This document shows positions 22,464 through 41,319 of a stretch of DNA of 64,000 nucleotides, piece after piece (the first letter of the stretch is position 1; every line of letters begins with the position of its first letter). Origin of the DNA: a virus. Below the pieces are notes generated by a model, which did no database searches, was not told the origin of the DNA, and worked only from the letters and a program-made list of their open reading frames with translations. The stretch lies in IMG/VR virus record IMGVR_UViG_3300045988_168112. The stretch is one strand, 5' to 3'. The translations under genes were made by a program, and so were the position numbers.

Positions 22464-22492
22464 AAAAGAAAGGACGAATTTTTCGTCCTTTC
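22464..22492 (-). terminator. rho-independent terminator
   Basis: Perfect 11-bp stem GAAAGGACGAA/TTCGTCCTTTC (22468-22478 and 22482-22492) with a 3-nt loop, followed by UUUU on the minus strand. It lies 30 nt after the stop at 22522. Confidence 0.6.
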
Positions 22493-22521
22493 TCGTGCCT
22501 AAAGATACAAAACATTTATTA

Positions 22522-23082
22522 TCAATCCCACGAAATTTCAAGACTTAGTGTCTCTTCTTTATTATGTGTTACCGGCTTATAACGAGATTGAGTCGTCAAA
22601 TCTCGTTCAGCAACGTTATTGTAATCTTCAATAGCTTTCTCTTTGTCAACACTTCTCGATATCCATAGACCAATCATTTGACCAGGTTCCATATTACCGA
22701 TTGTGACCTTATCTTCTTCTGTAGCATCATACAATTGAGTATTGAATGGTGCACTATATATACTTGGTATTGATTCCATGTATTGAGAACCATCTTCATT
22801 CTGATTTAAAAGTGTTGCACCTATCTTACAAGAACAATATGCATCCTCAGGAACAACAAACCATAATTGAACATTCTGAGCAACTTCATTACTCTCATTT
22901 TTCAATACAATTGCGCGATACTCTGTCTTAGCATCTTTAACTGTTCTCAAACTCAATTCATCAAACAAATTATCGAATACATCATTAGGTATCTTTGTAG
23001 ATGATACATAACCTCCCAATGAATTCATTGGTTTAGATTGAGCTGCGAGATATTCTGAGCTTACTGTATAAAATAATTGCAT
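22522..23082 (-). CDS. hypothetical protein (186 aa), probably fibre-associated or structural
   Basis: Last gene of the fibre operon before a strong terminator. The call rests on position only. Confidence 0.4.
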   Translation of the reverse strand: MQLFYTVSSEYLAAQSKPMNSLGGYVSSTKIPNDVFDNLFDELSLRTVKDAKTEYRAIVLKNESNEVAQNVQLWFVVPEDAYCSCKIGATLLNQNEDGSQYMESIPSIYSAPFNTQLYDATEEDKVTIGNMEPGQMIGLWISRSVDKEKAIEDYNNVAERDLTTQSRYKPVTHNKEETLSLEISWD

Positions 23083-23087
23083 AATTC

Positions 23088-23924: not shown

Positions 23925-23950
23925 ATATTTATAAATTTTTATTTACAAAA

Positions 23951-26900
23951 TTAGAACCAATCTGGATAAGCACTAATATATTGGTCGTAACCATTCATCT
24001 TTGTACATCCTCTGAAACATCCGCTTTTGGATATACTGTCAACATCCGGGAAACCGAATTGATATGGTTGGAATATTCTCTTAAAATAATAAAACAGAGG
24101 CATATAAGCTGACGGCAATTTTACTCCGGCTACTATACAATCCCATCTCGGTTGAGACGTCATATTTGAGCAACCGCTAAATGTACTTGTGCAACTGTCT
24201 ATATGTTTCAGTACCCCCGATTCTATATAACTATTATCAGTTCCCGTAGGTCCAGGTTTATTCTCGGTTACATCTCCAAAAGCATATTCAGCCGTCAGCA
24301 AATTAGAACAATTCTCGAACATGCTGTTAATGTTCACAGTCACCGAATGTTCGGGCGGTGTGATAGGACTACCCTGCGAGCCTACTGTTCTCAAATTCCT
24401 GCACCCGGCAAAACAATGCGCATAAGTGCTACATTGTGGAGAATCAGAAAACAAAGACGATGTTATGGTAGTCAGACCACTATTTTCAAACATGCTCGAC
24501 GCGCTTCTAATATCCGGAATTATCACACCGCTTACATTCAATAGACTTGTACAACCGTAGAACATCCCATCGCATCTCGTTCCTCCGTTTGTTGAATAAT
24601 TAAATGCCCCCGAACTTATACTCGTCAAATTTGTACATTGATAGAATGCTTGTGCCAGCGACAACTCACCCACGGTTCCAGAAAACAGATTGCTCGGCAA
24701 TGATGATACACCCGAAAGATTACAAAAACCGTATGCGTTTATCATTTCACCCGAAAGATACTTGAATGATATCCTGCACGGTGACTGTAGATTGGAACAA
24801 CGAGAAAACATGTAGATACATGTGTTTATATTCGTCGCTCCGATATCATTACTTATGCTTGACATTCCCGTACATCCAGTAAACATATAATTCAGAGACG
24901 TTTTGTTACTTGATGTCCTTAACTGTCCACTTACAGAAGAAATGTTACTACATCCATAGAAACAATAGGAGTAATCACTTATCAAATTTCCTCCAAGCAC
25001 GCTTGACAAGTTCACTGAACCGCTCAATCCACTATTTCTATATGTACTCACAAACGTACCACTTGTTATAAAATCAAACAATCCTGCCGGAACGCTTCTC
25101 AAGCTACTGCATCCGTAAAAGAACGAATCTGCCGAACCACTCATAAGACTTGTAGTCCAACTTACAACCGATTCAAGACTGCTGCAATCTTGGAAAGCTC
25201 CTTTATTCCATGATGTTCTCACATCCTCAGTAAACCACTTAATTACTTTTGTCAAACAATTTTGGAAACTTGAAAATCCATCTGCACTCCACGATAAATT
25301 GGCAGACATCCCATTAAAATCGAACAATATTATCTTCGTTCCTCCTGAACTATAGGTATGTGAACTTGTTCCTAATGTCTGGTCACCATCTCCCCATTTA
25401 ACACGCAGATTGTTTAATCCCATGGAAGATGTATTTAACACTGGCAACGTCAGACTTGTACCATTTGATACACTTACTTCCAGTACTGCACCATCTTCCA
25501 TGATAATGTTTATGGTTTTACTGAATTCTTCTGGTCTTACAAAATAACTTCCACTCTCTGTAAAATAGTTAGGACTTGTTGCAATCCATGCATATGTGTC
25601 GTTACAAGGTACCAACCAAGATAATGTACCACTTGAACTTGTAACACCAGAACTTATATTATCTTCTACTGTTACACCTGAAATAGGTGTACCAGCTTTT
25701 GTCCTTACATTATAAGTAACTTGACACTTATTCCTTACCATCACGACATTCACATAGACATCGTCGTTACTTATACTTACCGAACCATTCTGACTTTGAT
25801 ATCCAGCTTTTGATGCTTGCCAGCTAAAACTCTGTGGAGGTACATATGGACCAAATACTGCTCGTCCTGCACCATCTGTATTTTTCATATTACTACCAAG
25901 AGTAATACGTACATCTCTTATAGAAATTCCTTTCTCATCTACTACATCGAAAATGACCTTATAAGTGTTAACTCCAAGAACTATCGTTGCACTCGTATTA
26001 TATTCCCCTACCGATATAAATGTACTATTTTCATTGTATTGAGGTAATTTACTTGCTGTTGCTGTACCTGAATCACCTGCCTCTACATTGAAAGTTGTAT
26101 ATCCTTGACTGTCTGAATATTGTGTCATTCCTCGAAACGATACTTGTGCTCCACTTACTGCTCTTTGCGAACTGTTAACAACCTTTATCGTAACATCAAC
26201 TCTCTTTATCGTGAAATTGATAGGAACACGTACATCTGAATTGTATATAGAGAATGAATTTACTACATCATAACAATAACGATATTTTGCCACATAATCG
26301 TATGTACCTGAAAACAATTGTGTAGATACTAAACCTAATTCGTTCGTCGTCAACTTTTCACTTTGTCCTACAATCTCAATTGTCGCTCCAGAAGCCTGTG
26401 TACTTCCTATAGTAGCTGCAAACGTCACATTAAACGGTACTGCTGCTTTTTCTGCCATCTTTATAGTATATTCATTATTTCCAGCTACAATATTAACATT
26501 TCCTTTTGCATTATTGTAATCTGGTTGAGAAGCAGTCCATTCCCATACACCTAACTCAAGCGTCCAATTCCCTGCAATACCATTAGCATTAGAATACTTT
26601 GTCTCACCATTGATTGTCACTATTGCATTCTGTATAGGAGCTTCTGTTGTAACGTCAACTACTGTCACTATCAAAGTTCCAGTCTGTTTTACAAGGTCAA
26701 CAGTAATTGCAATAGGTTTATCTATCACAACGGCAGTTCCATTTCTCGGTTCATATCCTGATTTTGTTACACTCCACGGATAATTACCTGGGACCTTATT
26801 GAAGATAGCGTTACCATTTGCATCTGTATTGACTGTCTGTAGAGAATCTCCTGCACCTAATACAACAGGCTGATTCTTTACCGGAACATTATCTATTCTG

Positions 26901-29422
26901 ACAGTAAATACAATATTGTACGAAATAAGTCTTAATTCGACTTTTACTTTTGCGTCAGCACCGTTAACTGTTACAACACCTTGTTGTAAATAATAACCAT
27001 CTTTTCTTGCTGTCCAGTTATAACCACCTGAAATTCTAACAAATTGCGCTTGACCTGAAGAAGTTGTAGTGATAACTTCAGTACCAACTGTAATATCAAC
27101 ACCTTCAAGTGGAAGTTTAGTTTCCGAATCAACAACTTCAAAATCAACTAAATAACCTCTTTGAATAAAATCAATCTCTTTTGTTATATCTTTATCTACA
27201 ATGGTTATCTGACCTTGTTGTGTATAGAATTCAGTTTTCTCTACTTGCCAATTATATGTACCAGCAATATCAATAAACGAAACAAGACCATTCGCATTTG
27301 TTTGAAGCGTTACTCCATTAAAAGTGACATTAGCTTTAGCAACTGGCAATGCATTACTTCTTACAACGAATGTTATTGTATATTTAGGTATAGGATTAAA
27401 CTGAACATCGATTATCGCATTGCCATATATTGTAAATTCTTCCTCTTTTGTAATATAACCTTCTTTAACTACCTTATATCTATATGTTCCTGCAGCTAAT
27501 ACAAACCCAGTAGCAATACCTTGTGTATTTGTAGAACCAGTTTGATTTTCAATTTCATCTCCAGTTACTAATATAGAAGCTCCTGGAACAGGGTCAACTC
27601 CAGTACGAACTCTGAATGTCACATTATAATACGGAATTTCTTCCATTTCAAGTTCAATATTAGTAGAATCAATAATTTCTGCACTTCTTCTAATAGGATA
27701 ATAATCTTCAAGCTCTGCCGAATATTGATAAATACCTGGAAAAACTTCAAATGTGACTATCCCACTCGCTCCTGTATACTTTGTAATACCAGCAAAAACA
27801 ACCTTTACACCTGAAAGAAAATCTTTAGTCTCTTTATCTCTTACAAAGATTGTAACAACTCTCTCGTAAGCTGCACCAATCAATTGAATATATTCTATAG
27901 CATCCTTTTCTACTAATAGAGTGTTTTCTACATTTTCAAAGTTTTCTGCCTCTACACTATAATACCAATGACCTCTTGGAAGAATAATCGAAGTTTCACC
28001 GTTTACATTTGTTTTAAGCTCTTCGCCGTTTATTGTTATAATAGCATTAGGAATATATTTATTTCTATTAGAAAACACTTTAAAAAGTATTCTATAAGTT
28101 TCTTCTCCTTCATAAGGTCTGATTAATTCACTTCCAAAGATATTCTTATATCCTATCAAATAATTCTTAAGAAAGGTTTCTATTGAAAATTTCTCTTGAT
28201 AAGCATTGTTCTTATAATATGCTGCAATAATATCTCTTTCTCCTAAATATCCTTGGGAAAACGGAAGATATAATGGTTTTACTTTAAAATCATATACATA
28301 CACATAAGGAGAACTTACACCTACTTCTCTCTCTTGAATAAAAATAGGTGCTATATATTTCATATTAGGTAAGATTGACAATGCTCTACCTGTTGAGAAG
28401 TTCAATTTCGGTGCTTCTATAAATTTTTCATTATTTGAAAGAAGAAGTCCTTTTATATGATAATATATATTGTCATTTTGAAACTCTATATAATCAGTAG
28501 TATGAAACCACATTGAACTTCCAACAATAGCTCCATTCTCAATTACTCCCATCGGTAGAGCTTCTCCATCTGTAGTTTCGTATCCTGCAACACCAAACTT
28601 TAAATTTTGATTTTCCAATGAAGAAACTTTTACTTGCAATGAGATTTCATAACTTAAATTAGGGTCTATAATGATAAGTTTTTCTAAATCTACTCTACCA
28701 TCAATGCCTACAGCTTGATTACCAAAAAAAGTCATAGCATTGAAAATCTCATCACTTCCATTTTCATCTTGTGTTAAATTGATACTTTCAGGTATCAATA
28801 AAGGATAATTATTCAAATCTTCTACACTTGAAGTAAATTCATATCCTTTGGAAACATTCATTACAGTATCAGTTCTATTCCACGTAGGTGAACTATATCC
28901 CATCGACCACCCAGTAGCTTCTGGTTTAAGTAAAGCAAAAATAAACTCATCTAACGAATTGTATCGAATTAATCGTAGAAGCTCACCAAGAATTTCACCT
29001 TCTTTGTTTATAATGTCCAAACGACCTCTTTTTGAATATTCTTCCAAATAGTTATAAAATAGATATTCCATTTGTTCTTGGTCATCTACCATATTTGTTA
29101 CGAGACCTCTATTTTGAATAAACATCTCAAACAATATCTGGTTTGTATCTATTTCTTTATATTTACGTGCATATAAAACTATCAATGCGAATAGATGAGT
29201 TATAGTTCCCCAAAAAGCTTGAAAATCAGGATTACTCTTCTTATTGATAAATGTAGGGAGGATTCGACTTCCTTCTAATTTCGCCAATACATTCTCAGCC
29301 CAACCTACGACAGCTTTATCGTTTTCTTCAAAAAAACGACTGAACATTAAACTATTATATATAGATGAAGCTTGTGGTAAAAACAATCCACCACATGGAT
29401 TCTTTTCTTCTTTACTTTTCAT
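23951..29422 (-). CDS. tail fibre / receptor-binding protein with tandem CarboxypepD_reg-like beta-sandwich domains and a C-terminal BspA-type leucine-rich-repeat region
   Basis: 1,823 aa. The middle third has more than 10 repeats of about 85 aa with the pattern V.D....P..GA.V...G...TT...G......G.Y...V.K.GY. The last ~450 aa or so carry at least 10 repeats of the F..C..L.S(I/V) type: FQDCSSLESV, FYGCSSLRSV, FYGCSNISSV, FTGCTGMSSI, FYQCTNLTSI, FYGCTSLLNV, FAGCRNLRTV, FENCSNLLTA, FSGCSNMTS. Confidence 0.8.
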   Translation of the reverse strand: MKSKEEKNPCGGLFLPQASSIYNSLMFSRFFEENDKAVVGWAENVLAKLEGSRILPTFINKKSNPDFQAFWGTITHLFALIVLYARKYKEIDTNQILFEMFIQNRGLVTNMVDDQEQMEYLFYNYLEEYSKRGRLDIINKEGEILGELLRLIRYNSLDEFIFALLKPEATGWSMGYSSPTWNRTDTVMNVSKGYEFTSSVEDLNNYPLLIPESINLTQDENGSDEIFNAMTFFGNQAVGIDGRVDLEKLIIIDPNLSYEISLQVKVSSLENQNLKFGVAGYETTDGEALPMGVIENGAIVGSSMWFHTTDYIEFQNDNIYYHIKGLLLSNNEKFIEAPKLNFSTGRALSILPNMKYIAPIFIQEREVGVSSPYVYVYDFKVKPLYLPFSQGYLGERDIIAAYYKNNAYQEKFSIETFLKNYLIGYKNIFGSELIRPYEGEETYRILFKVFSNRNKYIPNAIITINGEELKTNVNGETSIILPRGHWYYSVEAENFENVENTLLVEKDAIEYIQLIGAAYERVVTIFVRDKETKDFLSGVKVVFAGITKYTGASGIVTFEVFPGIYQYSAELEDYYPIRRSAEIIDSTNIELEMEEIPYYNVTFRVRTGVDPVPGASILVTGDEIENQTGSTNTQGIATGFVLAAGTYRYKVVKEGYITKEEEFTIYGNAIIDVQFNPIPKYTITFVVRSNALPVAKANVTFNGVTLQTNANGLVSFIDIAGTYNWQVEKTEFYTQQGQITIVDKDITKEIDFIQRGYLVDFEVVDSETKLPLEGVDITVGTEVITTTSSGQAQFVRISGGYNWTARKDGYYLQQGVVTVNGADAKVKVELRLISYNIVFTVRIDNVPVKNQPVVLGAGDSLQTVNTDANGNAIFNKVPGNYPWSVTKSGYEPRNGTAVVIDKPIAITVDLVKQTGTLIVTVVDVTTEAPIQNAIVTINGETKYSNANGIAGNWTLELGVWEWTASQPDYNNAKGNVNIVAGNNEYTIKMAEKAAVPFNVTFAATIGSTQASGATIEIVGQSEKLTTNELGLVSTQLFSGTYDYVAKYRYCYDVVNSFSIYNSDVRVPINFTIKRVDVTIKVVNSSQRAVSGAQVSFRGMTQYSDSQGYTTFNVEAGDSGTATASKLPQYNENSTFISVGEYNTSATIVLGVNTYKVIFDVVDEKGISIRDVRITLGSNMKNTDGAGRAVFGPYVPPQSFSWQASKAGYQSQNGSVSISNDDVYVNVVMVRNKCQVTYNVRTKAGTPISGVTVEDNISSGVTSSSGTLSWLVPCNDTYAWIATSPNYFTESGSYFVRPEEFSKTINIIMEDGAVLEVSVSNGTSLTLPVLNTSSMGLNNLRVKWGDGDQTLGTSSHTYSSGGTKIILFDFNGMSANLSWSADGFSSFQNCLTKVIKWFTEDVRTSWNKGAFQDCSSLESVVSWTTSLMSGSADSFFYGCSSLRSVPAGLFDFITSGTFVSTYRNSGLSGSVNLSSVLGGNLISDYSYCFYGCSNISSVSGQLRTSSNKTSLNYMFTGCTGMSSISNDIGATNINTCIYMFSRCSNLQSPCRISFKYLSGEMINAYGFCNLSGVSSLPSNLFSGTVGELSLAQAFYQCTNLTSISSGAFNYSTNGGTRCDGMFYGCTSLLNVSGVIIPDIRSASSMFENSGLTTITSSLFSDSPQCSTYAHCFAGCRNLRTVGSQGSPITPPEHSVTVNINSMFENCSNLLTAEYAFGDVTENKPGPTGTDNSYIESGVLKHIDSCTSTFSGCSNMTSQPRWDCIVAGVKLPSAYMPLFYYFKRIFQPYQFGFPDVDSISKSGCFRGCTKMNGYDQYISAYPDWF

Positions 29423-29449
29423 ATTGATTAATATCGATATTTCTTTTCG

Positions 29450-29480
29450 TAAAGATACAACTTTTCCTTTTTAAAACAAA
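29450..29480 (-). promoter_or_regulatory. Bacteroidota-type promoter candidate (TTTG-N19-TATCTTTA)
   Basis: The minus strand reads TTTGTTTTAAAAAGGAAAAGTTGTATCTTTA, 28 nt upstream of the ATG at 29422. It lies just outside the left inverted repeat. Confidence 0.45.
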
Positions 29481-29496
29481 TACTATGAATTTTATT

Positions 29497-29559
29497 CAAT
29501 CTCCCTCATCAAAGACCAGTCCATAACAATAGAGGCTCTAAAGGTAGGGGTGTGGGTGA
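29497..29559. repeat. left arm (IR-L) of a perfect 63-bp inverted repeat
   Basis: CAATCTCCCTCATCAAAGACCAGTCCATAACAATAGAGGCTCTAAAGGTAGGGGTGTGGGTGA. I checked base by base that it equals the reverse complement of 32526-32588. Confidence 0.95.
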
Positions 29560-31004
29560 AGAATGAATGGAGTAGTAGTAATTTCGGAGGAACATCAACA
29601 TCTCGTAAAAATTCATATACTGGATTATATATAGAACCGATTATAGAGGCGAATAAAACCTATCCAAGTAGTTCATGTGCTGCCGTGTTGATATACGACC
29701 CGGCTCAAATGGTTATATCTTCTCAAAAAACGGTTGTTTCCCTTTATACTGATTCCCCGTATGTTTATGGAGCGTCAGCATTTTTTGATTCTGCGGCAAC
29801 GACAGATTCAGAAAGACTATATGGATATAGTTATATACAAGGAAGCTTCTATTTGAGTTCTACTTCTGATGGTGATTTTCAGAACTTAAATTATGTACTT
29901 TGTGGATTTGCTGGTGCAAATAGGTTTACATGGGGACAGATACATATAAGGAGAGGTTCGTTGAATTATGTAAAAGGAAAGAATGATTCTACTTTGGGTT
30001 CAGTATTCCAAAATAGTAATAATTATTCTGTAAGAAATTCTTTATGTACTTTGATAACACAAAAAGAAGTGGATTCAATTAATGAAAATCTTAATGCACA
30101 AGAAATAGTGGCAATACCAAGCACACCCTCTTCTACTAACCAAATTAGTATGTTAATTCAGGGGTATGATATTAGTTCCACTATGTCTTCTTATAATTTA
30201 AATCTTGCCGGGCCTTCTGTCGGAAGAAAAATCAATATATTCTTTTATAAGAGAGTACAAGTCAGTTACTCTAAACGTCAATTAATATTACTTGTAAGCG
30301 GACCTCAAAAAACTTTTTCACAAGAAAATCTGACTTTTGATTTTTATGTATTGGTATGGAAGGAATCACCTACATGGAATTATATAAATAGTGGTAGTGG
30401 TGTGCAATATTGGCATTGTTATAACAACGTACCTTCTGCCATTACAAGCAATATGGGAAACAACTTTTGGATGAGTCCAGACAGAAGAATAATGTTTTAC
30501 ATTGGGAAAGGCTCGTGGGGAGCATCAAAAGGAATAAATACAGCAAGAAGCGGTTCCTTTCTGTTCAACGAAAACGGTTGGGCTGTTGCATCACCAGCTA
30601 TCAATGATAGTTATACGGAAGAAGTTAGAAATACTCTTGCAAATTATTATGTCCTTGATATTCAATTTAACAAAAATGGTTCTAAAATGATTGTATTGTG
30701 TAACGGGCAAAAAGGAACACAAGGAGCTACAATTATTACTGATTCTTATGTTGAAGGTATACACCCGACTAATATATTTTGTTTTATAGTGTTAAGTGGC
30801 GGGAAATGGAAAAATATACCATTCCCTGCGGTAGGACTTACTAATTTCTGGAATAAATATACCGCTTCCGGAAGTGGTAAACTTAGACCATTCTTTAGTA
30901 TTAACCAGAACTATTTGGGTAATTCGTGGGATATGAGCTATGTTTATCCGTCATACAGCGAAAATGCAACGGCATATTATGCTTCTCTTACTTTTAATGA
31001 TTAA
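29497..31004 (+). CDS. silent alternative C-terminal cassette of the giant tail fibre (no promoter, no own ATG)
   Basis: This is the only plus-strand ORF of note. The frame is open from 29475, with no ATG before or within IR-L. The track start at 29550 is a GTG inside IR-L. Read through IR-L it encodes ISLIKDQSITIEALKVGVWV, identical to the giant protein. The last ~200 aa are clearly homologous to the giant protein C-terminus: shared blocks include PSAITS, ENGW, NYY(I/V)LD(V/I)QFN and EGI(Q/H)P. Confidence 0.75.
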
Positions 31005-31013
31005 ATAAAACGG

Positions 31014-31042
31014 GCGTCCGTACTTTTAATTGGTACGGACGC
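31014..31042. terminator. bidirectional rho-independent terminator between the two convergent cassettes
   Basis: Perfect 10-bp stem GCGTCCGTAC/GTACGGACGC (31014-31023 and 31033-31042) with a 9-nt loop. It is flanked by AAAAC on the left and TTTTG on the right, so a U-run follows the stem on either strand. Confidence 0.7.
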
Positions 31043-31056
31043 TTTTGTATAAATTA

Positions 31057-34000
31057 TCAATCACCAAAACTCAAATTATATCTATATGCGTTAAGCGGTT
31101 CATTTCCTCCAGGATACATAAAATTGATTTCTCCATTTACAAAATTGATTAAAGGTTTGTAAATATTACCTTTACCTCCAGATGTAGAGTTGCTATAATC
31201 ATTCCAAAGTGCATCTCCTCCTATATAAGAACTATTTAATCTGACAAATTTTTTCTGATTTTCCACCCAAATAAAATAAAGTATTATATCTGGTTGAATA
31301 CCTTCTGCATAACTATATGTAGAGCTTGGGTTTGTAAATGCACCTTTTGAAGAATTTCCAAAAACTATTATTTTATTAGATTTATTGTTGAATTGAACAT
31401 CTAATATATAATAGTTCTGACAAGCATTTAAGATATCCGTACCTCCTCCTTCCATTTCATAAGAAACTCCAGTCCAGCCATTTTCTCCAAAAAGGGCTGA
31501 TGAACCTTTTATGATATGCAATCCTTTAGAAAATCCTTGGTAATTAGCTCTATTTAATGATATATAGAACAACCATTTTAAATCCGGTGATACCCAATAA
31601 TCTCCTCCAATTACAGAAGTAATCGCAGATGGAATGTTGTAATAACACGACCAATTTCTCACAGATTCCAAGTCATCCCCATATTCTCCTAAAGATGATT
31701 TCCATATTCCATAATAAAATTGGGCATACGTGGTTCCATATGACCTATCTTGCGATTTTACTAAAATAACTACCTTTTCATTGTCACTTATTAATGTCAA
31801 CCATCCCATATGTTCTACTCTGCCTTCATCTTTATAAGGATATCCAGGTAGGTCAGAAAAATTTAGGATGTTATTAGAAACATACTGTTCTGATATACTT
31901 ACTACTATAAATTCATAATTACTATGAGTTCCAATCATATAAGATTTTATTCTTCCATTTGAACGAGGCATTGTTTTAATAACAGAAGCATATTTTCTTA
32001 CAGAATAATTGTTAAAATATTTATACTGGTCGCTTATTGCATTATTACTATAATATAAATCTGATGAAGTGAATGTCCAAGCATCATTAACTGAATAATA
32101 TCTTCTTACTTGAGTTGCAGTCCAACATATTACAGCATCAATTACATAATGTATATATGTAATTACGGGAAGTTTAGTGCTATCAAAATTATATACGGGA
32201 TGACTTATTGACACACCAAGATATTTTGTCATTGCATTTGTACTTACATAAATTGAACTATTATTATACCATAAATTAGTTTCATCTTTTTTATATAATT
32301 TAGCTATATAATATGTTTCAAATGAACTACCCGACAAATAAACAGAACGTCCTAATGTATAGCTTTTTGTACCAGTAGTTACGAAAAATACAATACCAAA
32401 AGAATTACTAACAGCATATAACTTACTTTCTTCACTCGCTAAATTCACAATACCCGTATAAGCACCTTTAAATGGTTTATAATAATTATCTATATATGAA
32501 TAATATTGTTCCACTCTTCTATTGCTCACCCACACCCCTACCTTTAGAGCCTCTATTGTTATGGACTGGTCTTTGATGAGGGAGATTGCAGTGGTGGAAC
32601 GGTTCGGATAATTCCAGTCTCCTGTTCCGTTTCCTCCCCATGTCGTGCTTCCTCCTGCTTCCCACCAGTAGTTGCCCGGCTTTATTGTCAGTACCACCTG
32701 TCCGCTCGTATTTGTAGTGCCGCTATATGCAGTGCTGGTATTGTTACTTGACAGCTTCACTATTACACCACTTCCTACACTTGTTCCTGTACTCGCGTCC
32801 TTTACGGTTATCGTTATCGTCACCTCACTTGGTACCAGCTTGATTGTAAAATTAGAGGTGTTCGTGTTCGTCGTGTTCAGTGTCACGTATCTTGTCGCAC
32901 TTACCACGTATCTCATTGTTGTTCCAGATACATATATAGTTGCTTGTCCAGAACTGTTCGTCGTTACAGTCTGCGTAGCATAATTATTAGAATCTGAACT
33001 ATCTCCATTAATACCATATACCTTTATTGTCGCACCACTTACAGCCGCATTTGTATAGCTATTCTGTACAGTCACTACAATACTCTTTATTGCAGTAGAA
33101 TAAAATGCTGTAGCGTCACTGTTATGTCCTATATTGCTAAAATTATAATTAGGGGTGATGTTGTATGTCGTTTCGGTCGTTGTTGTGCCAGTCACATAAT
33201 AACTTGCCTTGTATGCAGCTATATTTGTCGTTATACCTGCAATGAATGTATATGTTCCATAATAATATACCGTTTTAGCAGAATTTTGAGTGAGTGTGAC
33301 TGTTGTTGCCACTCCTGCTGTTGTAAATATAGGCTTCACTAATGTGTTTACTCTCCACCATCCTAATAAAGGAGTAGAAAGCGGCACCCTTATTCTGAAT
33401 ACAACTGCTACACTCTTCGTTAATCTTACAGCATTCTGTGTAGTTGTTGCTGTAGGCATTGTTATTGTCGTGCTTCCGTTTACCCAATAGCTTGTACCTC
33501 CACCCCATGATAATGTATATGAACCTGCTATCATAGGGCCGAATGACACTTGACCGCTACTATTCGTCGTTCCAGCAAACGTGACAGATGACAAACTCTT
33601 GTTCGTCAATGTAACCGGACATCCGTTCGCATTCCCTTTTACTGCATTCTGATAATAGTCCTTCATCGTTATTGTGATAGAAGAACTTGTCTCGCTCATT
33701 TTCAGATTAAGAGGACTTGCCTGCGTTGCCGATAATGTACCGGATAACGCATTGTAGTTCGTTTTTGAAAATGAATATCCTCTATTGATACCGCTTCTAT
33801 ATACAGTCCAATTACCACTACTATCCGTTGTCCCTGTCTGTCCTAAATAAGAACATGATACTCCGCTTATATTCGTTCCATAATTAGAACTCTTTATGTT
33901 GAATGTCAGACGTGCTGTTACATTCAGTGTCATAGTCCAGGATTGATTTTCAGATACCCATGTCCATTCCTGGCTTGCATTACTGTAATAACTTGCATTG

Positions 34001-37000
34001 TTTTTCGGTGTATAGGTGTAGTTTATTCCAGCATATACCGTATTTGTTTTCTTTCCGCTCGCATCCAACGTTATTTCTCCTGCCGGGGCATTCGAGCCTG
34101 TAGGTACACTTCTGACTATCACTGCACTACCTAACGGATGGGTTGCTGTGATGTTTGGAACTTTCTCAACGACTGTCAGTGTAACCGTTCTTGTCGTTCT
34201 GTTCATCGTCACTGTATAAGGTGATGTCTGTGTGGCAGTCACTGTTCCTACGTAGTTGTTGAAATACTGTGCCGTGGCGGTCATTTGTCTATCTAATCCA
34301 CTTCTGTAGAAGCTTCCTCCGGATGGAAGTGTTTGACCGAAATAGGTAATTGTTCCAGAAAGCGCATTACTTGTATTGTAAATATTTGCTACTGTATTAA
34401 TCACTATCTTTTGGTTGCAAATCAATTGTATTGTCCGCACTTGTCCTGCTGCCGTATAAGTCAGTGCAGTATTTGGATTACTGTAATAATTAGGTCTTGT
34501 TACTGGTGTGAATGTTACTGGTGTACCTAAATAACATACAAACGATACATTGCCGTTCGTATCTAACGTTAATGGGCTTGTAGAAGCTGCCGGACTGAAA
34601 TTCATCTTCATGGATGAATAAAGAGCTACAGTCCATCCAAACGTATTAGACGGAAATGCTTTTCTTGTTATTGTAACAGCATCAGTCGATTCATTATTAT
34701 ATACGTTAATATTATTACTTCCATTACTAAATAAGAAATCTTTATTTGCAGAAACCATTTTGTCTACAGTACATATTTGGGTTATTTCTGCATACGATTT
34801 ATTCTGCGAATTACTTCCACTGATATCAAATACTGATGCTGTATCTATCTGCCATGTAACTGGCTTACTTCCTCCATCTAAATTAAAGAAATTGGTTGTA
34901 CTGAAAGAACCAGAAGCACCACATCTTATATAATGAGCATACCAAGTCCATACACCTGTTCCTTTATTATCTGTAAGCCATCTTCTCGTTGCACTCCCAC
35001 CTGTTCCGGTTGCATTACTCTGAAAAAACAAACTATATCCAGTAGGAATTTTTGCATGGAAAAACACTACAAATTCCTTATTAGCTGCTGTTGGCGTACC
35101 AAAATAAAAACCTCCTAATCCCGGACTTGTTGCTCCGGTAGAAGTCTTTATTTCCAAAACATACTGTGATTTGAATAACACTTCTTCACTCACTCCAAGA
35201 CTTACTGTAGCAGTTGAACGCGTCATTACCGCGTTGAACGGAGACGCGGTATCTGATGTTATACTGCCTCTATAATTACCGTGATATGTTGCTGTAATAT
35301 CTACATTTCTGGTTACAGAACTTCTATATAACGATACGTTGCCACTACTATCCGTCGTTCCTGTCTGATGAAAATATGACACAGTAGCACCGCTCAAATT
35401 TGTTCCGCTTGGCACGTTCGACTTGACATTAATTGTTATTTTTGCCGTTACAGTCAAATCCATAGTCCATGACTGATTGGCGGCCGTATAGGTGTGTTTC
35501 TGTGTCGGATTGCTGTAGAATTCCGGATGTCCTACTACCGTAAACGTCATTTCCGTACCTATATATCCATTGAATGTCACTGCACCGCTTGCATTCGTTG
35601 TAAGTGTTCCGGTCGCACTTCCTGCTGTGTATTTTATCTGTAAGTTCTGATAATAAGTTGTCTGTGCTGGCGTTATTTCTCTTACTACAAGTGTAACCGG
35701 ATTAGCGGCACGTGTCATTACGATATTGAACGGTGAAGTAGAATCGAACCTTATCTGACCTGTATAAGATTCAAGATTTGCAGCACTCACCGATATATTA
35801 CGAGGGTCTGAACCGCTCCAGTAGAACACTGCGTTTCCGCTTGCATCCGTCGTTTTTGTCTGAGTAAAATAATTTACTGTTGCACCTTGAATGTTTTGCC
35901 CTGGTACATTATCTTTCACATTTACAGTTATCTGTTTCGCACAAGTGAGATTCATGTTCCATACTTCACCTGCCGTTGTAAATGTATGTGTTTGAGTTGG
36001 ATTACTATAAAATACCCTTCTATTTTCTGCAATTACTGCAAATGTAATCGGAATACCTAAATACGCCTCAAATGTATTTGTTCCGCTCGTAATCGTTCCA
36101 TTACCTGCTGCCGACGTGTAACTTAATGTAAAATTATACCCACCATCCAAAATTACACTTGCACCACCCGGTATCACTTCATATTGCTGTACTGTCACTA
36201 CATGCTTATTTCTTAGCATCGTAACATTAAGCGGTGAAGCTGTAGTAGGAGCAATGGTTCCGTTTACCGTGCTGTAATCCTCCTTGTCTAAAGAATAATC
36301 CTTTTCCAGTGCTGACCGGAACAATGAAGCGTTTCCGCTTGCATCCGTCGTCACCATCTGTTCGTTGTAAGTTACCGTTACTCCTTGGATATTGTTTTTC
36401 GCATATACATCCTTTACATTAACCGTTATCTTTGAGGTCACGTTCAAATCGAATGGCCATATCACACCATCTTCCGTCCATGTATAGGATTGTGTCGGAT
36501 TGCTGTAAAAGCTTGGGTATGAATCAGTCGTGAACGTGTATTCCAGATTTTTTATCAATAACTGGTTGGTATAACCGTTTTCATCCAAAGTCAGCTTTAT
36601 CGTTCCTGCCTTGGATGTCATTGTAATGGTCTGGTTTGACAGATAAGCTCTTCCTGCCGTACCGTACACCTCCGAAACCTGAATACCTGCATTAATCAAT
36701 TCATATTGCACTTCTACATCCAACACTGTACCACTTTCACTTTGGGGATGTGAGAACGTATCGGATGAAACCTCGCCTGCAAGAACCTCGTAGGTGTATT
36801 CTCCTACCGGAACATTCGGCATGACTATCGTTCCTTCCGTATTCGTCTCTCCCTCGAACACCATGTCCGGCAATACATTGTTTGTTACACGTACCAAAAT
36901 TCCATCCGGTGGTAAAACTCCCTGTGTTGATACATGGAAAGTAACTGGATATTCCTTTGCTTCCAATTCAATATCCATTCTTGTTTCTGTTCCGGTAGGT

Positions 37001-40000
37001 TTGAAATTCCCAGTCTTTGTGTTGTAATGCTGCTTGCTTACACTGTAAGACATATTTACTGGAGAAATGTACATTTGCACTATTCCATCCGTATTCGTCG
37101 TTCCTGTCTGATTGACGGACATCCCACTGAATGTTACTGATGCACCGCTTAACTCACCGTATAAATTAGAGGTGATATATACCGGAATTCTCTTCGAGCA
37201 TGTATATACAAGGTCTTTTGTTTTTGTGTCAGAATAATTTAACGTCGCTACGGCTCCGTTACCTTCGTAAAAAGTGACTGGCTGTATCTGGAAACGCTCT
37301 GCAATACCTGCATACACGGTTTTTACAAATCTTCCGTTTGCGTCCGTCGTTACATTATCACCGGATGATTCGCCATTATCATTGTAATAACATGCAAGAA
37401 TCATCCCGGCTTTTACCGGATTTGCTGTTGTCGTGGAAATAGAAGGTATTATTTCCTTTACCGTATAAGTGACTGAAATCGTTCTTCTTACTACCGTGGG
37501 GGAAATCGTATTGTTTACCGGAAGAACAATATCCCATGTTTTGTTATTAAAATTACTGTTTCCTCCTCCGAATGTGATATTATATCTTCCTGGGGGTATG
37601 TTGAACTGTCCGTTTCCTTTGGATGTAAATACACCATTTTCATTAGTTGTTCCGGTAAAACTATATGCTTGTGATGGTGTGCCGCCCCAATTACTCACGG
37701 CTGTTACTGGACAGTTTACTGCTACCGATTCATAAGGCTCCATGCTTTTTAGGTTTACGGTCATTGTTATTTCCGCATACCCCATGATTATGTCTATATA
37801 ATCGGCTGACAATGGAGGTGTAAACGTACCTGTCTTGTCCGTATGGTCTGCTACTGTACATTCATAGCTCATTGCAATAGGTGAGATGTACACGCTTGCC
37901 GAACCGTCACTTCCGGATGTCACTGTTTGAGGCAAAGACATTCCGGACACGGTTATTTCCGCACCTTCAAGCGGTCTTAACGTGTTCTGCTGTTTTACCC
38001 TTAATTCTACTTTCTTTGAACATGTGATTTCCATAAGCGTAGGTACACTCGCTCCGAAACCCCAATTCTTAATCAGTAAACCGTTGTTCTCATAGAAACC
38101 TTTCTCTTTTATTGTCAACTGATAATCAATACCCGGCATTACTTCCGGAAATATCTTTCCTGCCGCATTCGTCGTATATTCTCGTACATTATCGTTGAAC
38201 ATGTTCTTTACTGAAACAACAATTCCAGCCTTGACCGGATTGAAGTTCAGAGCGGCTTTCTGTTCGGCAGCTATCTTTACAGTTACCTGGCTTACCGGAG
38301 TCGTTATCGTCACATCCACATAGAAAGTTCTCGGCTGTGCATCACGTGTCACATTCGGCTGCACTGTCAACATCGTACCTTCCAAAGAAGCTATTTCGTC
38401 ATTTGACACGTTGAATACCAATTCTGCACCTCCGCTTGCAAAATCATATGGCTCGTCCTCACCGCCAATTTCTGCACGTCGAAAAGTTTTTACATGTTCC
38501 ATCAAATCAAACGTCACTCCTTTGTTAGGAACAACGAAGTTTTCCGGTGTATGAACTATGTAATAATAACTGTCATTAGATAACGTCTCAGTCGTATTTT
38601 CACCACTGAATCTTACTGTAGTAGCATCACCGGACACACCGGGAATATTCTCTATTACATCAACTTCCGGTTCGATTTCCCTTCTTGTCATAGTAAAAGG
38701 AAGGTCTATATCCTTCAATTTTTCAAGCGTTATCGACTGGTTTTCTACCGCATCATAATATCTGTGTGTCGCATTCCAAGTGTATTCCCCTGCTTCCGCT
38801 CCAAGCTGCAATACGCCTATATCATTCGTATAACCGGAATCCACTTTAATTCCGGTCCCCTTGTTTATCAATTCGATATATACACCGGAAATAGGAGTCT
38901 TCGTTATCGCGTCCGTTGCAGTGTATGTTATTACAGTATCTCTCAATTCAAGATAAATAGTTTCTACAACATCTTGGTCTTTAATTACAACTTGTCCAGT
39001 GTATCTTTTATAATTTCTTTGAGTAACTACATAATCATGAGTTCCATTACCAAGAGTTACAGTTGCTACACCATTTATATTTGTAATTTTTGTTTCTTCA
39101 TTGATATTCAATTCAGCACCTTGAATATAATTACCATTCTCGATATCACGAACAATTAGTTTTAATGTATAGAATGCCTTGTTTAATTTGATAATCTTAG
39201 ATATAGGTGCATCATCCACAACAATAAAGTCTGAATACGACATATAACCGCTTCTAAACACTGTATAAGTAAATGTACCGTTCGGTAAGCTTACAATAAC
39301 TACACCATGTTCGTCTGTTAGATATGTAGATTCGTTAATTGAAACTGTTGCATTAGGAATCACCATATCATTTTCTGAATCAAGAACAGTAAATTTAACC
39401 TCATAGGGAATAGCATCAAGCTCAACAAGAATACAATTCGGTTTTTCTCCTACTATATCAATTGTTTCGTTGTACTCTTGATATCCTTCTTTCATTACAC
39501 GCATCTCATATTGACCTACCTGAAGTCCCATTTGAGCTTGTCCTTCATTGTCAGTTCTTTGAGTTGTATTTGTAACTGTAATATCTGCTTGAGGTACATA
39601 AATACTTCTTCTTCTATCAATAACAGCGAAATTGACTGTCAATGATTCAAGAAACATTCTTTCAAAGATTTCTACTGGTTTATTTTCAACAGTCAAAACA
39701 CTTTCAATGGTTTTAAATCCAGCTTTTGATACTGTATAACTATATGTTCCAGGTTCTAAATCTACAGAAGCTATACCTGTATCATCAGTTTCAAGAGTAT
39801 TAATTCCAATCTTGATTTCTGCACCTTCCATAGGAGCTTCACCTTCGTATATCGTGAAAGTCACTTTATAAGGGGTTGCTTCAAAATTATTAATCGTTAT
39901 AAAAATTGGACCATTTAATACTACAAATTCACCAGTCTGTTGAATCCAGTTTGCTTTATTCAATGTATATGTATATTCACCATTTTCAAGTAATACGTTA

Positions 40001-41319
40001 GCAGTACCAGATTCATCTGTTGTAATAACTTTGTTCCCAATAGTAATAAACGCACCAGGAACTGCAACATTCTTCAATGTAGTTACAGTAAATGAAACAA
40101 GATATTTCTGAGAAAGAATTGCAGATTGTGAACCTTTATAAATATCACTCTCTCCTGCTGGATAAAAAATATTAGAAAGACTACTACCAGAATCATATAA
40201 AATGTTTCCTTCCAAGTCTCGCATTCTGAATCCTTTGATACGAGGTAACATATTCAAAGGAACTTCTTCGTCAAAGTAAGGAAAGAAATATTCATCCGGC
40301 ACATATTTCACACCTTCCGCAGTTTTAACGACTTGAAGTAAATCATCCCATTGTACAACTTTTCCTGCTTCCCAAAAACGGAAATCAAGATACTTCGTCA
40401 TAGCAATTTGGATATTCTTTCTTGCATCAGCAATATTTATATTAGGAGATAATTCAACACGGAAATCAATACCTTGTTCTCCTCCAACATACATCCATTT
40501 TGCATTTTCAAGAATAATACCTACTGATTCACCTGATAAATTTAATTCAGTTAAACCAAAATAAGGAGTAGCTTTTTCAAGTAATTCTTCAAGCTCATCA
40601 TCTGTAAAGAAAGAACCATTCTGAGTTACAAGATAAATATGAGTCTTTCCATCTTCACCTAATCCTACATTCATAACCTTCAGAATTCTATCATCAAGGT
40701 CTTGGAAAATCTGTGTCCAAGATTCCACTGTTTCTTCTGAAAGTCTGTTATTGTAATTTATAATTCTGTTTCTAAAAGTCTCGTCATCTTCATAATCACG
40801 TCCACCAATAGCTGCATATTCGTTAGTACATTCTATATGCGTCAATGGTCTTGGAGAAACTTGTGTAATACTATTAGCTTCTACATTCGTAGCAGAACCA
40901 GTGATTACACTTCTTACACTTACATATCCATAACCAGAATTATCAACTGTAAACGGTTTATCTACAACGAATCTGATACCATTCTTAGAAATAAAAGTTG
41001 TACCTACTTCATATAATGTTCCAGGTTCAGCATATACTCTTATATAAGTAGATGAGCCAAGAGCTTGTTTTCGAGGACTTACACCAAACAATGCTGCTGA
41101 TTTATCCAGATATGTACCAGTTGCAGATGTAGGAAATATCTGTGCTTCTACAATAGCAATATCTTTAATTGCTTTTTGAGCAACTTTTGCAGTACCAAAT
41201 GCAACTGCATTCAACACTGAACCATCTGCTATGTTAGAAACCTTATCTGTTTTGTTTAAAAACATTTCAATCCACAAATTCTTCAGATTTGCGATTGTGT
41301 TACTTACCTTTGTTATCAT
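31057..41319 (-). CDS. giant baseplate-J-like / tail-fibre fusion protein (3,420 aa)
   Basis: The N-terminal ~390 aa resemble the Baseplate_J (P2 gpJ / T4 gp6) family (GSVLNAVAFGTAKVAQKAI...TSATGTYLDKSAALFGVSPRKQA). Dozens of CarboxypepD_reg-like beta-sandwich repeats follow, then five larger ~165-aa modules, then a C-terminal ~510-aa cassette inside the invertible segment. Confidence 0.85.
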   Translation of the reverse strand: MITKVSNTIANLKNLWIEMFLNKTDKVSNIADGSVLNAVAFGTAKVAQKAIKDIAIVEAQIFPTSATGTYLDKSAALFGVSPRKQALGSSTYIRVYAEPGTLYEVGTTFISKNGIRFVVDKPFTVDNSGYGYVSVRSVITGSATNVEANSITQVSPRPLTHIECTNEYAAIGGRDYEDDETFRNRIINYNNRLSEETVESWTQIFQDLDDRILKVMNVGLGEDGKTHIYLVTQNGSFFTDDELEELLEKATPYFGLTELNLSGESVGIILENAKWMYVGGEQGIDFRVELSPNINIADARKNIQIAMTKYLDFRFWEAGKVVQWDDLLQVVKTAEGVKYVPDEYFFPYFDEEVPLNMLPRIKGFRMRDLEGNILYDSGSSLSNIFYPAGESDIYKGSQSAILSQKYLVSFTVTTLKNVAVPGAFITIGNKVITTDESGTANVLLENGEYTYTLNKANWIQQTGEFVVLNGPIFITINNFEATPYKVTFTIYEGEAPMEGAEIKIGINTLETDDTGIASVDLEPGTYSYTVSKAGFKTIESVLTVENKPVEIFERMFLESLTVNFAVIDRRRSIYVPQADITVTNTTQRTDNEGQAQMGLQVGQYEMRVMKEGYQEYNETIDIVGEKPNCILVELDAIPYEVKFTVLDSENDMVIPNATVSINESTYLTDEHGVVIVSLPNGTFTYTVFRSGYMSYSDFIVVDDAPISKIIKLNKAFYTLKLIVRDIENGNYIQGAELNINEETKITNINGVATVTLGNGTHDYVVTQRNYKRYTGQVVIKDQDVVETIYLELRDTVITYTATDAITKTPISGVYIELINKGTGIKVDSGYTNDIGVLQLGAEAGEYTWNATHRYYDAVENQSITLEKLKDIDLPFTMTRREIEPEVDVIENIPGVSGDATTVRFSGENTTETLSNDSYYYIVHTPENFVVPNKGVTFDLMEHVKTFRRAEIGGEDEPYDFASGGAELVFNVSNDEIASLEGTMLTVQPNVTRDAQPRTFYVDVTITTPVSQVTVKIAAEQKAALNFNPVKAGIVVSVKNMFNDNVREYTTNAAGKIFPEVMPGIDYQLTIKEKGFYENNGLLIKNWGFGASVPTLMEITCSKKVELRVKQQNTLRPLEGAEITVSGMSLPQTVTSGSDGSASVYISPIAMSYECTVADHTDKTGTFTPPLSADYIDIIMGYAEITMTVNLKSMEPYESVAVNCPVTAVSNWGGTPSQAYSFTGTTNENGVFTSKGNGQFNIPPGRYNITFGGGNSNFNNKTWDIVLPVNNTISPTVVRRTISVTYTVKEIIPSISTTTANPVKAGMILACYYNDNGESSGDNVTTDANGRFVKTVYAGIAERFQIQPVTFYEGNGAVATLNYSDTKTKDLVYTCSKRIPVYITSNLYGELSGASVTFSGMSVNQTGTTNTDGIVQMYISPVNMSYSVSKQHYNTKTGNFKPTGTETRMDIELEAKEYPVTFHVSTQGVLPPDGILVRVTNNVLPDMVFEGETNTEGTIVMPNVPVGEYTYEVLAGEVSSDTFSHPQSESGTVLDVEVQYELINAGIQVSEVYGTAGRAYLSNQTITMTSKAGTIKLTLDENGYTNQLLIKNLEYTFTTDSYPSFYSNPTQSYTWTEDGVIWPFDLNVTSKITVNVKDVYAKNNIQGVTVTYNEQMVTTDASGNASLFRSALEKDYSLDKEDYSTVNGTIAPTTASPLNVTMLRNKHVVTVQQYEVIPGGASVILDGGYNFTLSYTSAAGNGTITSGTNTFEAYLGIPITFAVIAENRRVFYSNPTQTHTFTTAGEVWNMNLTCAKQITVNVKDNVPGQNIQGATVNYFTQTKTTDASGNAVFYWSGSDPRNISVSAANLESYTGQIRFDSTSPFNIVMTRAANPVTLVVREITPAQTTYYQNLQIKYTAGSATGTLTTNASGAVTFNGYIGTEMTFTVVGHPEFYSNPTQKHTYTAANQSWTMDLTVTAKITINVKSNVPSGTNLSGATVSYFHQTGTTDSSGNVSLYRSSVTRNVDITATYHGNYRGSITSDTASPFNAVMTRSTATVSLGVSEEVLFKSQYVLEIKTSTGATSPGLGGFYFGTPTAANKEFVVFFHAKIPTGYSLFFQSNATGTGGSATRRWLTDNKGTGVWTWYAHYIRCGASGSFSTTNFFNLDGGSKPVTWQIDTASVFDISGSNSQNKSYAEITQICTVDKMVSANKDFLFSNGSNNINVYNNESTDAVTITRKAFPSNTFGWTVALYSSMKMNFSPAASTSPLTLDTNGNVSFVCYLGTPVTFTPVTRPNYYSNPNTALTYTAAGQVRTIQLICNQKIVINTVANIYNTSNALSGTITYFGQTLPSGGSFYRSGLDRQMTATAQYFNNYVGTVTATQTSPYTVTMNRTTRTVTLTVVEKVPNITATHPLGSAVIVRSVPTGSNAPAGEITLDASGKKTNTVYAGINYTYTPKNNASYYSNASQEWTWVSENQSWTMTLNVTARLTFNIKSSNYGTNISGVSCSYLGQTGTTDSSGNWTVYRSGINRGYSFSKTNYNALSGTLSATQASPLNLKMSETSSSITITMKDYYQNAVKGNANGCPVTLTNKSLSSVTFAGTTNSSGQVSFGPMIAGSYTLSWGGGTSYWVNGSTTITMPTATTTQNAVRLTKSVAVVFRIRVPLSTPLLGWWRVNTLVKPIFTTAGVATTVTLTQNSAKTVYYYGTYTFIAGITTNIAAYKASYYVTGTTTTETTYNITPNYNFSNIGHNSDATAFYSTAIKSIVVTVQNSYTNAAVSGATIKVYGINGDSSDSNNYATQTVTTNSSGQATIYVSGTTMRYVVSATRYVTLNTTNTNTSNFTIKLVPSEVTITITVKDASTGTSVGSGVIVKLSSNNTSTAYSGTTNTSGQVVLTIKPGNYWWEAGGSTTWGGNGTGDWNYPNRSTTAISLIKDQSITIEALKVGVWVSNRRVEQYYSYIDNYYKPFKGAYTGIVNLASEESKLYAVSNSFGIVFFVTTGTKSYTLGRSVYLSGSSFETYYIAKLYKKDETNLWYNNSSIYVSTNAMTKYLGVSISHPVYNFDSTKLPVITYIHYVIDAVICWTATQVRRYYSVNDAWTFTSSDLYYSNNAISDQYKYFNNYSVRKYASVIKTMPRSNGRIKSYMIGTHSNYEFIVVSISEQYVSNNILNFSDLPGYPYKDEGRVEHMGWLTLISDNEKVVILVKSQDRSYGTTYAQFYYGIWKSSLGEYGDDLESVRNWSCYYNIPSAITSVIGGDYWVSPDLKWLFYISLNRANYQGFSKGLHIIKGSSALFGENGWTGVSYEMEGGGTDILNACQNYYILDVQFNNKSNKIIVFGNSSKGAFTNPSSTYSYAEGIQPDIILYFIWVENQKKFVRLNSSYIGGDALWNDYSNSTSGGKGNIYKPLINFVNGEINFMYPGGNEPLNAYRYNLSFGD
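32526..32588. repeat. right arm (IR-R) of the perfect 63-bp inverted repeat, inside the giant fibre ORF
   Basis: Reverse complement of 29497-29559. It encodes (A)ISLIKDQSITIEALKVGVWV(S) at codons 2911-2931 of the 3,420-aa ORF. Confidence 0.95.
33700..36800 (-). repeat. five tandem ~500-bp coding modules within the giant fibre gene
   Basis: The block (F/Y)YSNP(T/N)Q..T(W/F/Y)T recurs at about 36,500, 36,010, 35,510, 34,480 and 33,985. Each is followed by (I/L)T(V/I/F)N(V/I)K...G(A/V)(T/S)(V/C).Y..QT.TTD(A/S)SGN. Some DNA stretches are identical between modules, for example GCGTTTCCGCTTGCATCCGTCGT at about 35,832 and about 36,330. Coordinates are approximate. Confidence 0.6.

Follow-up and report, generated by a model that had tools for sequence, protein, structure and literature searches.

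The 64,000-nucleotide stretch of viral DNA analysed here, referred to as the window, carries a candidate DNA inversion switch at the 3′ end of a giant tail fibre gene. The window (IMG/VR record IMGVR_UViG_3300045988_168112) corresponds to the last 64 kb, reverse-complemented, of the 106,178-bp contig k109_85645 in the ENA metagenome assembly ERZ27293815. The fibre gene (31057..41319, minus strand) encodes a protein of 3,420 amino acids (aa), in which an N-terminal Baseplate_J/baseplate wedge domain is followed by many CarboxypepD_reg immunoglobulin (Ig)-like repeats, as identified by Pfam and PHROG matches, and then by an exchangeable tip that matches no Pfam or PHROG family. An initial annotation, made from the sequence alone, had predicted a baseplate-J-fused giant fibre whose C-terminus could be swapped by inversion, and the N-terminal domain match is in line with the first part of that prediction.

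The switch is bounded by two arms of a 63-bp inverted repeat, IR-L (29497..29559) and IR-R (32526..32588), which are exact reverse complements of each other and are 97% complementary across 68 bp. Among inverted repeats of at least 30 bp, the window contains this pair and one other, a 31-bp pair at 81%. IR-R lies within the fibre open reading frame (ORF), where it encodes residues 2912–2931 (ISLIKDQSITIEALKVGVWV); IR-L lies at the 5′ end of a second, silent cassette, where an identical peptide is encoded in register with a plus-strand open frame of 501 codons. Both the perfect repeat bracketing approximately 3.1 kb and the shared peptide and frame had been proposed initially, and both held when the arms were verified. 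IR-L is 93–100% identical in relatives of the window. The perfect repeat measures 63 bp in the window lineage, 76–87 bp in 24 of 38 loci, and 61–87 bp across most relatives; its inner boundary is sharp, at positions 61–70. One arm of the repeat is shorter by its outer 17 bp in the window lineage, a loss after which inversion persists (see the flipped locus L200 below). Short palindromes within the repeat (GAACNGTTC and TAGAGNCTCTA) were also considered and were rejected, as by our own estimate they are no more frequent than expected by chance.

Between the arms lies a segment of 2,966 bp (29560..32525) that consists of two convergent cassettes and a central hairpin. Cassette A (type T1; 31060..32586, minus strand) is active and forms the last 509 aa of the fibre. 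Cassette B (type T4; 29499..31004, plus strand) is silent: its 501 codons (29499–31001, stop codon at 31002–31004) are in frame with the repeat peptide, an in-frame TAA is located 8 codons upstream of that peptide, and no in-frame ATG occurs from this stop to the end of the repeat, which confirms that the cassette lacks an ATG before or within the repeat. In most relatives, an in-frame TAG directly precedes the silent arm. The cassette B ORF alone opposes the other credible genes of the window, every one of which is on the minus strand. As had been noted from the letters, the C-terminal regions of the two cassettes are homologous (34% identity over ~245 aa, E = 2e-33) and the N-terminal halves are strongly diverged, with no detectable similarity beyond the repeat. 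A flipped fibre was recomputed to be 2911 + 20 + 481 = 3,412 aa, the length first estimated. The swap junction falls at the end of the last Ig-like repeat, a natural domain boundary.

The stop codons of the two cassettes are separated by a spacer of 52 bp in the window and of 46–108 bp across loci. The spacer holds a hairpin (31012..31044) with U-tracts on both strands and folding energies of −21.5 and −17.4 kcal/mol (z = −5.9 and −5.1), in agreement with the central bidirectional terminator proposed initially. A generic terminator scanner did not list the 31012–31044 hairpin, whose loop size and tail do not satisfy its rules. A strong spacer hairpin was found in 40 of 40 measurable loci in the form of several unrelated sequences, indicating that the structure is conserved and the sequence is not. 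The hairpin is probably a two-way transcription terminator.

A scan of IMG/VR revealed 51 related loci, and among all the loci fetched, 41 hold both arms, spaced 3.0–3.2 kb apart, together with the plus-strand cassette, so that relatives keep the architecture seen in the window. One relative, L200 (ENA ERZ27272314, contig k119_123447, 106,173 bp), comes from a different sample. It is 99.25% identical to window positions 19568–29559, then carries 29497–32588 in inverted orientation (99.19% identity, gapless), and then continues from 32526 onwards; the junctions overlap by exactly the 63-bp repeat, and the resulting fibre, of 3,409 aa, ends in cassette B. The same flipped state was found in L006 (97–98% identical), L024, L201, and L202. 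The inverted segment is 98.0% identical to that of the window in L006 and 98.4% in L024, and the inversion junctions of L200, L006, L024, and L201 fall inside IR-R. In all 29 of 29 reciprocal locus pairs, the segment aligns on the minus strand and the flanks on the plus strand. The flipped contigs retrieved are all from samples other than that of the window, and orientation differences were seen between samples only. We conclude that the segment inverts, at least between populations; the initial annotation had proposed related genomes for this comparison. A 398-aa "gene" is present inside the L201 fibre gene; it was considered as an insertion or a recombinase and rejected, being a spurious antisense ORF.

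Protein searches gave a similar picture. Cassette B is the expressed C-terminus of the giant fibre in L200, L024, L016, L036, L046, L201, and L202, and a search with it against 5.8 billion proteins returned only stand-alone ORFs of ~484 aa. Cassette A occurs in other assemblies as a stand-alone silent ORF of 490–492 aa with 86–95% identity, and a protein search with cassette A extended by the 300 residues upstream of it likewise returned stand-alone ORFs of 490–497 aa that are 86–95% identical to A, which implies that cassette A is the stored copy there. Overall, the cassettes fall into at least nine types at 60% identity (~13 clusters at 50%), and each genome carries two different types. Six type pairs occur in both orders (T1/T4, T1/T2, T2/T3, T4/T5, T5/T6, and T3/T6), and each common type was found in the active as well as in the silent position; the window itself has T1 active and T4 silent.

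The repeat also appears to act as a boundary for exchange between genomes. Between L200 and the window, the right arm is the exact point at which identity falls from 99.2% to 91%; it is back at 97% further upstream (window 32526–34621 versus L200 12971–15066). Segments are often 98.9–99.8% identical between genomes in which the adjacent fibre shaft is only 84–91% identical. These comparisons point to horizontal exchange of either the switch segment or the shaft, the repeat marking the boundary. In addition, by our own count, approximately one quarter of the arm-holding contigs end inside or at the switch. Such breaks were recorded in L011/L056, L037/L054, L042/L057, L012, L040, L051–L055, L006, and L201–L203, and three near-full-length contigs start and end at the repeat. 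The breaks fit mixed orientations within samples, but the repeat alone can also cause them.

The silent cassettes are open over their full length in 39 of 40 loci, and the frame disruptions that would speak against a stored tip are absent from these 39. The ratios of nonsynonymous to synonymous substitution (dN/dS) are equal for silent and active pairs (e.g., 0.25 versus 0.25 for T1; range by type, 0.13–0.84). Both results point to silent cassettes that stay functional. The sole decayed silent cassette is in L025 (IMGVR_UViG_3300045988_116192), where the silent arm is at ~13308–13368, a stop codon follows after 89 codons, and 1,344 bp separate this premature stop from the stop of the active cassette; L025 may represent a lineage that has lost the switch.

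Structure prediction, which had been suggested as a means to identify receptor-binding domains, was run on both cassettes. The AlphaFold2 model of cassette A, built from a 26-sequence alignment, is all-beta, with a mean predicted local distance difference test (pLDDT) score of 61, values of 70–87 at residues ~290–460, and a predicted template modelling score (pTM) of 0.71. In Foldseek, the top PDB matches that we inspected were beta-propellers (E = 1e-5 to 4e-3, TM-scores 0.2–0.4), including the propeller of acylaminoacyl-peptidase, paraoxonase, bacterial and human sialidases, measles virus haemagglutinin, and WD40 proteins; the viral Foldseek library agreed with this picture. Cassette A is therefore beta-propeller-like at low confidence. 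The model of cassette B is too poor to be read alone (mean pLDDT 50.6; confident only at residues ~180–400). With low confidence, the tips may be read as propeller-type heads whose role is to bind a surface receptor or possibly to cleave it.

We searched the phage genome for recombinases with Pfam and PHROGs. No Resolvase, Recombinase, Phage_integrase, or IS110/Piv-type match was found among the 48 window ORFs, nor among the 45 ORFs and one intein-laden, gap-spanning ORF that cover the other ~42 kb of the genome, which were read from IMGVR 3300045988_153617 (proteins 97–100% identical where it overlaps the window). No recombinase gene lies beside the switch in the window or in its relatives, where the neighbours are the fibre gene and the gene of a 1,823-aa structural protein, and no other gene separates these from the switch. 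A tblastn search with Hin gave no match, and no hix/gix-like site was found (0 matches at ≤3 mismatches to a degenerate 26-bp consensus). What the genome does encode is a RecA/UvsX-like recombinase (1211..2197, minus strand; Pfam RecA 4.8e-70; phrog_97, UvsX-like, 1.5e-67), which is a candidate catalyst at the switch. Next to it is an SbcD-like nuclease with a Metallophos domain (2200..3228, minus strand), the SbcC-like partner of which lies just beyond position 1 of the window.

The variation within the repeat bears on how the arms may recombine. In 31 of 41 genomes, a 61-bp core is the same in both arms. Where the repeat is commonly polymorphic, at sites 8, 12, and 32 (8 and 32 being synonymous), the two arms agree in 39–40 of 41 genomes, compared with ~21 expected, and none of 10,000 permutations reached this level; rarer variants at repeat positions 53–56 are also paired between the arms. 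These patterns indicate that the arms evolve in concert along their whole length. Homogenisation of the whole repeat argues for heteroduplex repair, because a reciprocal exchange at a fixed point (2–8 bp overlap) cannot copy variants between arms. Genomes with two differing arms were too few to locate a crossover point. The repeat length of 61–87 bp is just above the minimum homology reported for RecA and T4 recombination.

Based on these data, we propose the following model. Recombination between the arms of the 63-bp repeat would turn the ~3-kb segment around, reversibly, and each flip would splice the constant 2,931 residues onto one of two tips of ~490 aa. The stored cassette would remain promoterless and start-less, headed by the other arm on the opposite strand. 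The tips are most likely receptor-binding heads, in which case the two orientations would confer two adsorption specificities. Whichever cassette is read would be terminated by the hairpin, and a separate promoter, immediately beyond the left arm, probably serves the downstream 1,823-aa gene. The exchange would most likely take place during phage replication, by general recombination and without a dedicated invertase. We regard it as an even bet that inversion is carried out by general homologous recombination with the phage's RecA/UvsX-like and SbcCD-like proteins. A broader reading goes further: a programmed inversion that rewrites a coding sequence without a dedicated invertase, through a 61–87 bp in-frame repeat kept identical by gene conversion, with the same repeat serving as the joint at which co-infecting genomes trade receptor-binding cassettes from a shared library of 9–13 or more tips, two per genome. 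To this broader reading, we assign a probability of roughly 0.4.

Several observations weigh against the proposed model. First, the repeat is an island of conservation between genomes: pairs of genomes are on average 95.5% identical in it (91% at third codon positions), as opposed to 64–91% (52–82% at third positions) over the 900 bp upstream. For homologous recombination, it is enough that the arms match within a genome, with no need for conservation across genomes, so this island fits a protein-recognised site at least as well; it could instead reflect frequent cassette exchange between genomes through the repeat. Second, the absence of a recombinase is bounded by what Pfam and PHROGs can detect and covers phage genes only, many of which belong to no family. 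Third, the beta-propeller and receptor-binding assignment is tentative, given models of moderate to poor quality and TM-scores of 0.2–0.4. Finally, the two orientations were never seen within one population.

The first two of these points lead to the strongest alternative, in which the switch is the same but is operated by a site-specific recombinase, either from an unrecognised phage family or supplied in trans by a host (Bacteroidales) invertase, and the repeat is its binding or crossover site. Besides the conservation of the repeat, synonymous sites included, and the many phage ORFs without a family assignment, the sharp inner boundary of the repeat at 61–70 would suit such a site, and, to our knowledge, all classical tail-fibre inversion systems use a dedicated invertase. 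Against it stand the lack of any detected recombinase family across ~106 kb, and of any beside the switch, together with the empty Hin and hix/gix searches; the homogenisation of the arms over their full length, on both sides of any single crossover point; and the window lineage, in which inversion goes on although 17 outer bp are gone from one arm. We consider this explanation a serious one, though doubtful on the present balance.

It is also conceivable that there is no programmed switch, the stored cassette being left over from duplication or horizontal acquisition and the inversions being rare accidents of no adaptive use. This would account for orientations that were seen to differ between samples and never within one population, for the 0.8% divergence that still separates the closest opposite-orientation pair, and for the high dN/dS of T2 and T3 (0.77–0.84). 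It would not be expected to leave a layout kept in 41 loci with ~500-codon silent cassettes intact in 39 of 40, common types that are both active and silent with six pairs in both orders, a spacer hairpin kept in structure and not in sequence, arms that evolve in concert, and breaks inside the switch in about a quarter of the arm-holding contigs. We therefore think it unlikely.

Still less credence can be given to the plus-strand ORF as an independent gene that starts from a GTG at 29550 and encodes a 484-aa protein, with the repeat reflecting shared ancestry only. Gene callers do annotate a protein of 482–484 aa, but the frame has an upstream stop and no in-frame ATG, its putative start lies inside the repeat and is identical to internal fibre sequence, it opposes every other gene in the window, and, in other genomes, near-identical copies serve as the C-terminal end of the giant fibre. 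That the orientation is an assembly artefact, set arbitrarily at the repeat, is barely credible, although contigs frequently terminate within or at the switch: each of the two orientations was found repeatedly across many independent assemblies, produced with different assemblers, and the names k109_ and k119_, which we take to follow the MEGAHIT convention, imply final k-mers (109 and 119) that exceed the 63-bp repeat in length, so that each orientation, if the names are read correctly, is supported by reads and is not an arbitrary choice of the assembler. Even when combined, these last two explanations seem to us highly improbable.

The initial annotation had likened the locus to the Mu G segment. 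The likeness extends to the phages P1 and P7: as in Mu G/Gin and P1/P7 C/Cin, a ~3-kb segment is flanked by inverted repeats, one of which is inside a tail fibre gene, and the constant N-terminal portion of the fibre continues, as in Mu G and P1 C, into either of two convergent, alternative C-terminal portions, of which the silent one lacks a promoter and a start. Which tip the fibre bears, and hence the host range, depends on the orientation in Mu and P1. The logic of the comparison thus stands, but the family does not. Unlike Mu G and P1 C, the locus has no serine invertase gene beside it or elsewhere in the genome, no hix/gix/cix-like crossover site, and no U/U′-type chaperone gene in its cassettes, each of which is a single ORF facing the other across the 46–108 bp spacer. 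Mu and P1 are temperate, whereas the phage described here is a myovirus-like phage of ~106 kb with no integrase detected, and its 3,420-aa fibre is fused to Baseplate_J and carries tips without a sequence family. Taken together, the locus works like Mu G and P1 C but is outside the Gin/Cin/Pin/Hin family.

Other systems share single aspects with the switch. The Min system of p15B and the R64 shufflon (Rci) likewise provide one adhesin or fibre gene with a repertoire of alternative C-terminal ends; they hold many cassettes per genome, with short repeats and a dedicated recombinase, whereas here there are two cassettes per genome, and at least nine types are spread over the phage population and exchanged horizontally. 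For tyrosine recombinases of the Rci, FimB/E, or Bacteroides Tsr type, no Phage_integrase match was found in the whole phage genome. A diversity-generating retroelement differs in that it has a reverse transcriptase, a domain not found here (the only RVT_3 match accompanies an RNase H match), and the repeat of the switch is inverted and identical, not adenine-mutated. Inversion with no obvious dedicated recombinase, under recombination-rich replication and with both isomers in nature, is shared with the plastid inverted repeats, the herpesvirus L/S segments, and Anabaena cyanophages, in which a ~30-kb region between inverted repeats is invertible (bioRxiv 10.64898/2026.02.14.705889). The repeats in those systems are at least 400 bp, and their inversion changes gene order and rewrites no protein; here, the repeat is 61–87 bp and in frame, and the coding sequence is rewritten. 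With regard to flip-flop by homologous recombination, the features that we tested are present at the locus: the arms are long enough and evolve in concert, RecA/UvsX-like and SbcCD-like proteins are encoded, and no dedicated recombinase was detected.

Gene-altering programmed inversions have been surveyed in bacterial genomes and prophages, including prophage tail fibres (Milman et al., 2023; PMC9881135), and invertase and integrase families were among the gene families enriched at the predicted loci (PMC9881135). As in those loci, an intragenic inverted repeat swaps the 3′ part of a specificity gene; here, this occurs in a metagenomic phage, and no integrase or invertase was detected. The TPMM study (PMC13501310, 2026) introduced its candidates as the first putative invertons to be reported in viral metagenome assemblies from the human gut; the one that it detailed lies in a Microviridae capsid gene (PMC13501310). 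No description of the switch reported here was found in open-access papers and preprints.

On its left side, the switch is bounded by a gene for a 1,823-aa protein with Ig-like repeats (23951..29422, minus strand), a second fibre-like protein, and no recombinase gene lies between the two. The layout of the switch and a neighbour of the 1,823-aa type is the same in L007 as in the window. A promoter-like motif, GTAAAGATACA, is located just outside IR-L and upstream of this gene (region 29445..29475, minus strand; motif at 29449–29459 on the plus strand), and it recurs intergenically, with 8 matches versus 2.15 expected (sites include 16049–16099, 10707–10757, and 60614–60664); its core is also present at 22499–22509. 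The reverse complement of the motif, TGTATCTTTAC, resembles TAnnTTTG, which we take to be the Bacteroidetes −7 promoter box. The recurring motifs are probably phage promoters for minus-strand genes, and a promoter between the left arm and the 1,823-aa gene would explain how that gene is expressed behind the terminator. A sigma-70 promoter scan of the window was uninformative (16 sites versus 18.5 expected).

The uncultured phage that carries the switch belongs to a widespread group. Relatives with genomes of 102–108 kb are common; in a public assembly collection, 726 indexed blocks contain one of the window proteins, and several of the records or samples that carry this protein are labelled as human gut or faecal. 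The structural genes encode a tail sheath, baseplate proteins, a major head protein, a portal, and a large terminase, indicating a contractile-tailed phage. The replication genes include a split DnaE, a DnaG-like primase, a DnaB-like helicase, an NAD-dependent ligase, and RecA/UvsX-like and SbcCD-like proteins; genes for 7-deazaguanine synthesis (QueD, QueE, and FolE) and inteins are also present. No integrase was detected in the phage genome, and neither the cassette family nor the large terminase has relatives in 185,579 GTDB species-representative bacterial genomes, which thus gave no prophage or host clue. On these two grounds, we treat the phage as probably virulent. By large terminase, the closest cultured phages are the Bacteroides thetaiotaomicron phages DAC16-23 and SJC03, at 36% identity; the earlier suggestion of a Bacteroidota phage is weakly supported by this match and is best taken as a lead. 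Another lead is that the gene content resembles that of the "Gratiaviridae" (DnaG, DnaE, SbcCD, RecA, and tail sheath; Benler et al., 2021; PMC8008677).

The cassettes themselves have few recorded relatives. A nucleotide search of GenBank phages with the locus yielded only a 545-bp, 67%-identical match in an unannotated fragment, and a protein search of GenBank phages with cassette B yielded no match. Exact protein look-ups of P0022 and of a hypothetical stand-alone form of the window's cassette A found neither on any record, and the window fibre is the sole member of its own protein cluster. An exhaustive profile search of 1.84 billion representative proteins identified 27 relatives of the cassettes; ~13 of these are stand-alone clusters of ~480–498 aa, and one more forms the end of a protein of 3,417 aa, so that the family appears to be confined to this phage group.

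Several further features of the carrier genome were recorded. The DUF5856 gene at 63373–63954, compared with loci L058–L137, is 96–100% identical in one set of IMG/VR contigs and only 61–63% identical in most of the contigs with the most similar fibres, a sign of genome mosaicism. DnaE is split into two ORFs in the window (6377–10049). In relatives, the large terminase, DnaE, and a very large ORF that weakly matches ribonucleotide reductase contain inteins and homing endonucleases (Hint, LAGLIDADG, and HNH; L005, 1–2646 and 12230–15130; L152, 19329–20984; L176, 6–3194). The cluster at 11902–14009 encodes the 7-deazaguanine (queuosine-type) enzymes GTP cyclohydrolase I, a QueE-like radical SAM enzyme, and a QueD-like PTPS, which suggests that the phage DNA is modified. 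The window ORFs also include matches to ADP-ribosylglycohydrolase (4e-24) and the PBECR1 nuclease domain (1.6e-10), which may have counter-defence or takeover functions.

Bacteroides hosts escape phages by flipping the promoters of capsule and surface-protein genes, as is known from work on B. thetaiotaomicron phages. If our reading is correct, the phage would be the mirror image of this phase variation, hedging its bets by flipping its receptor-binding tip, in a lineage that is common in the human gut. The host range of such a phage would then be unreadable from a single assembly, a "hypothetical 484-aa protein" on the opposite strand would be a stored fibre tip, and contig breaks at the locus would mark population heterogeneity. 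If, moreover, the switch runs without an invertase, a short in-frame repeat and ordinary recombination would be enough to build a phase-variation device, and inverton searches that rely on a nearby recombinase would miss such loci.

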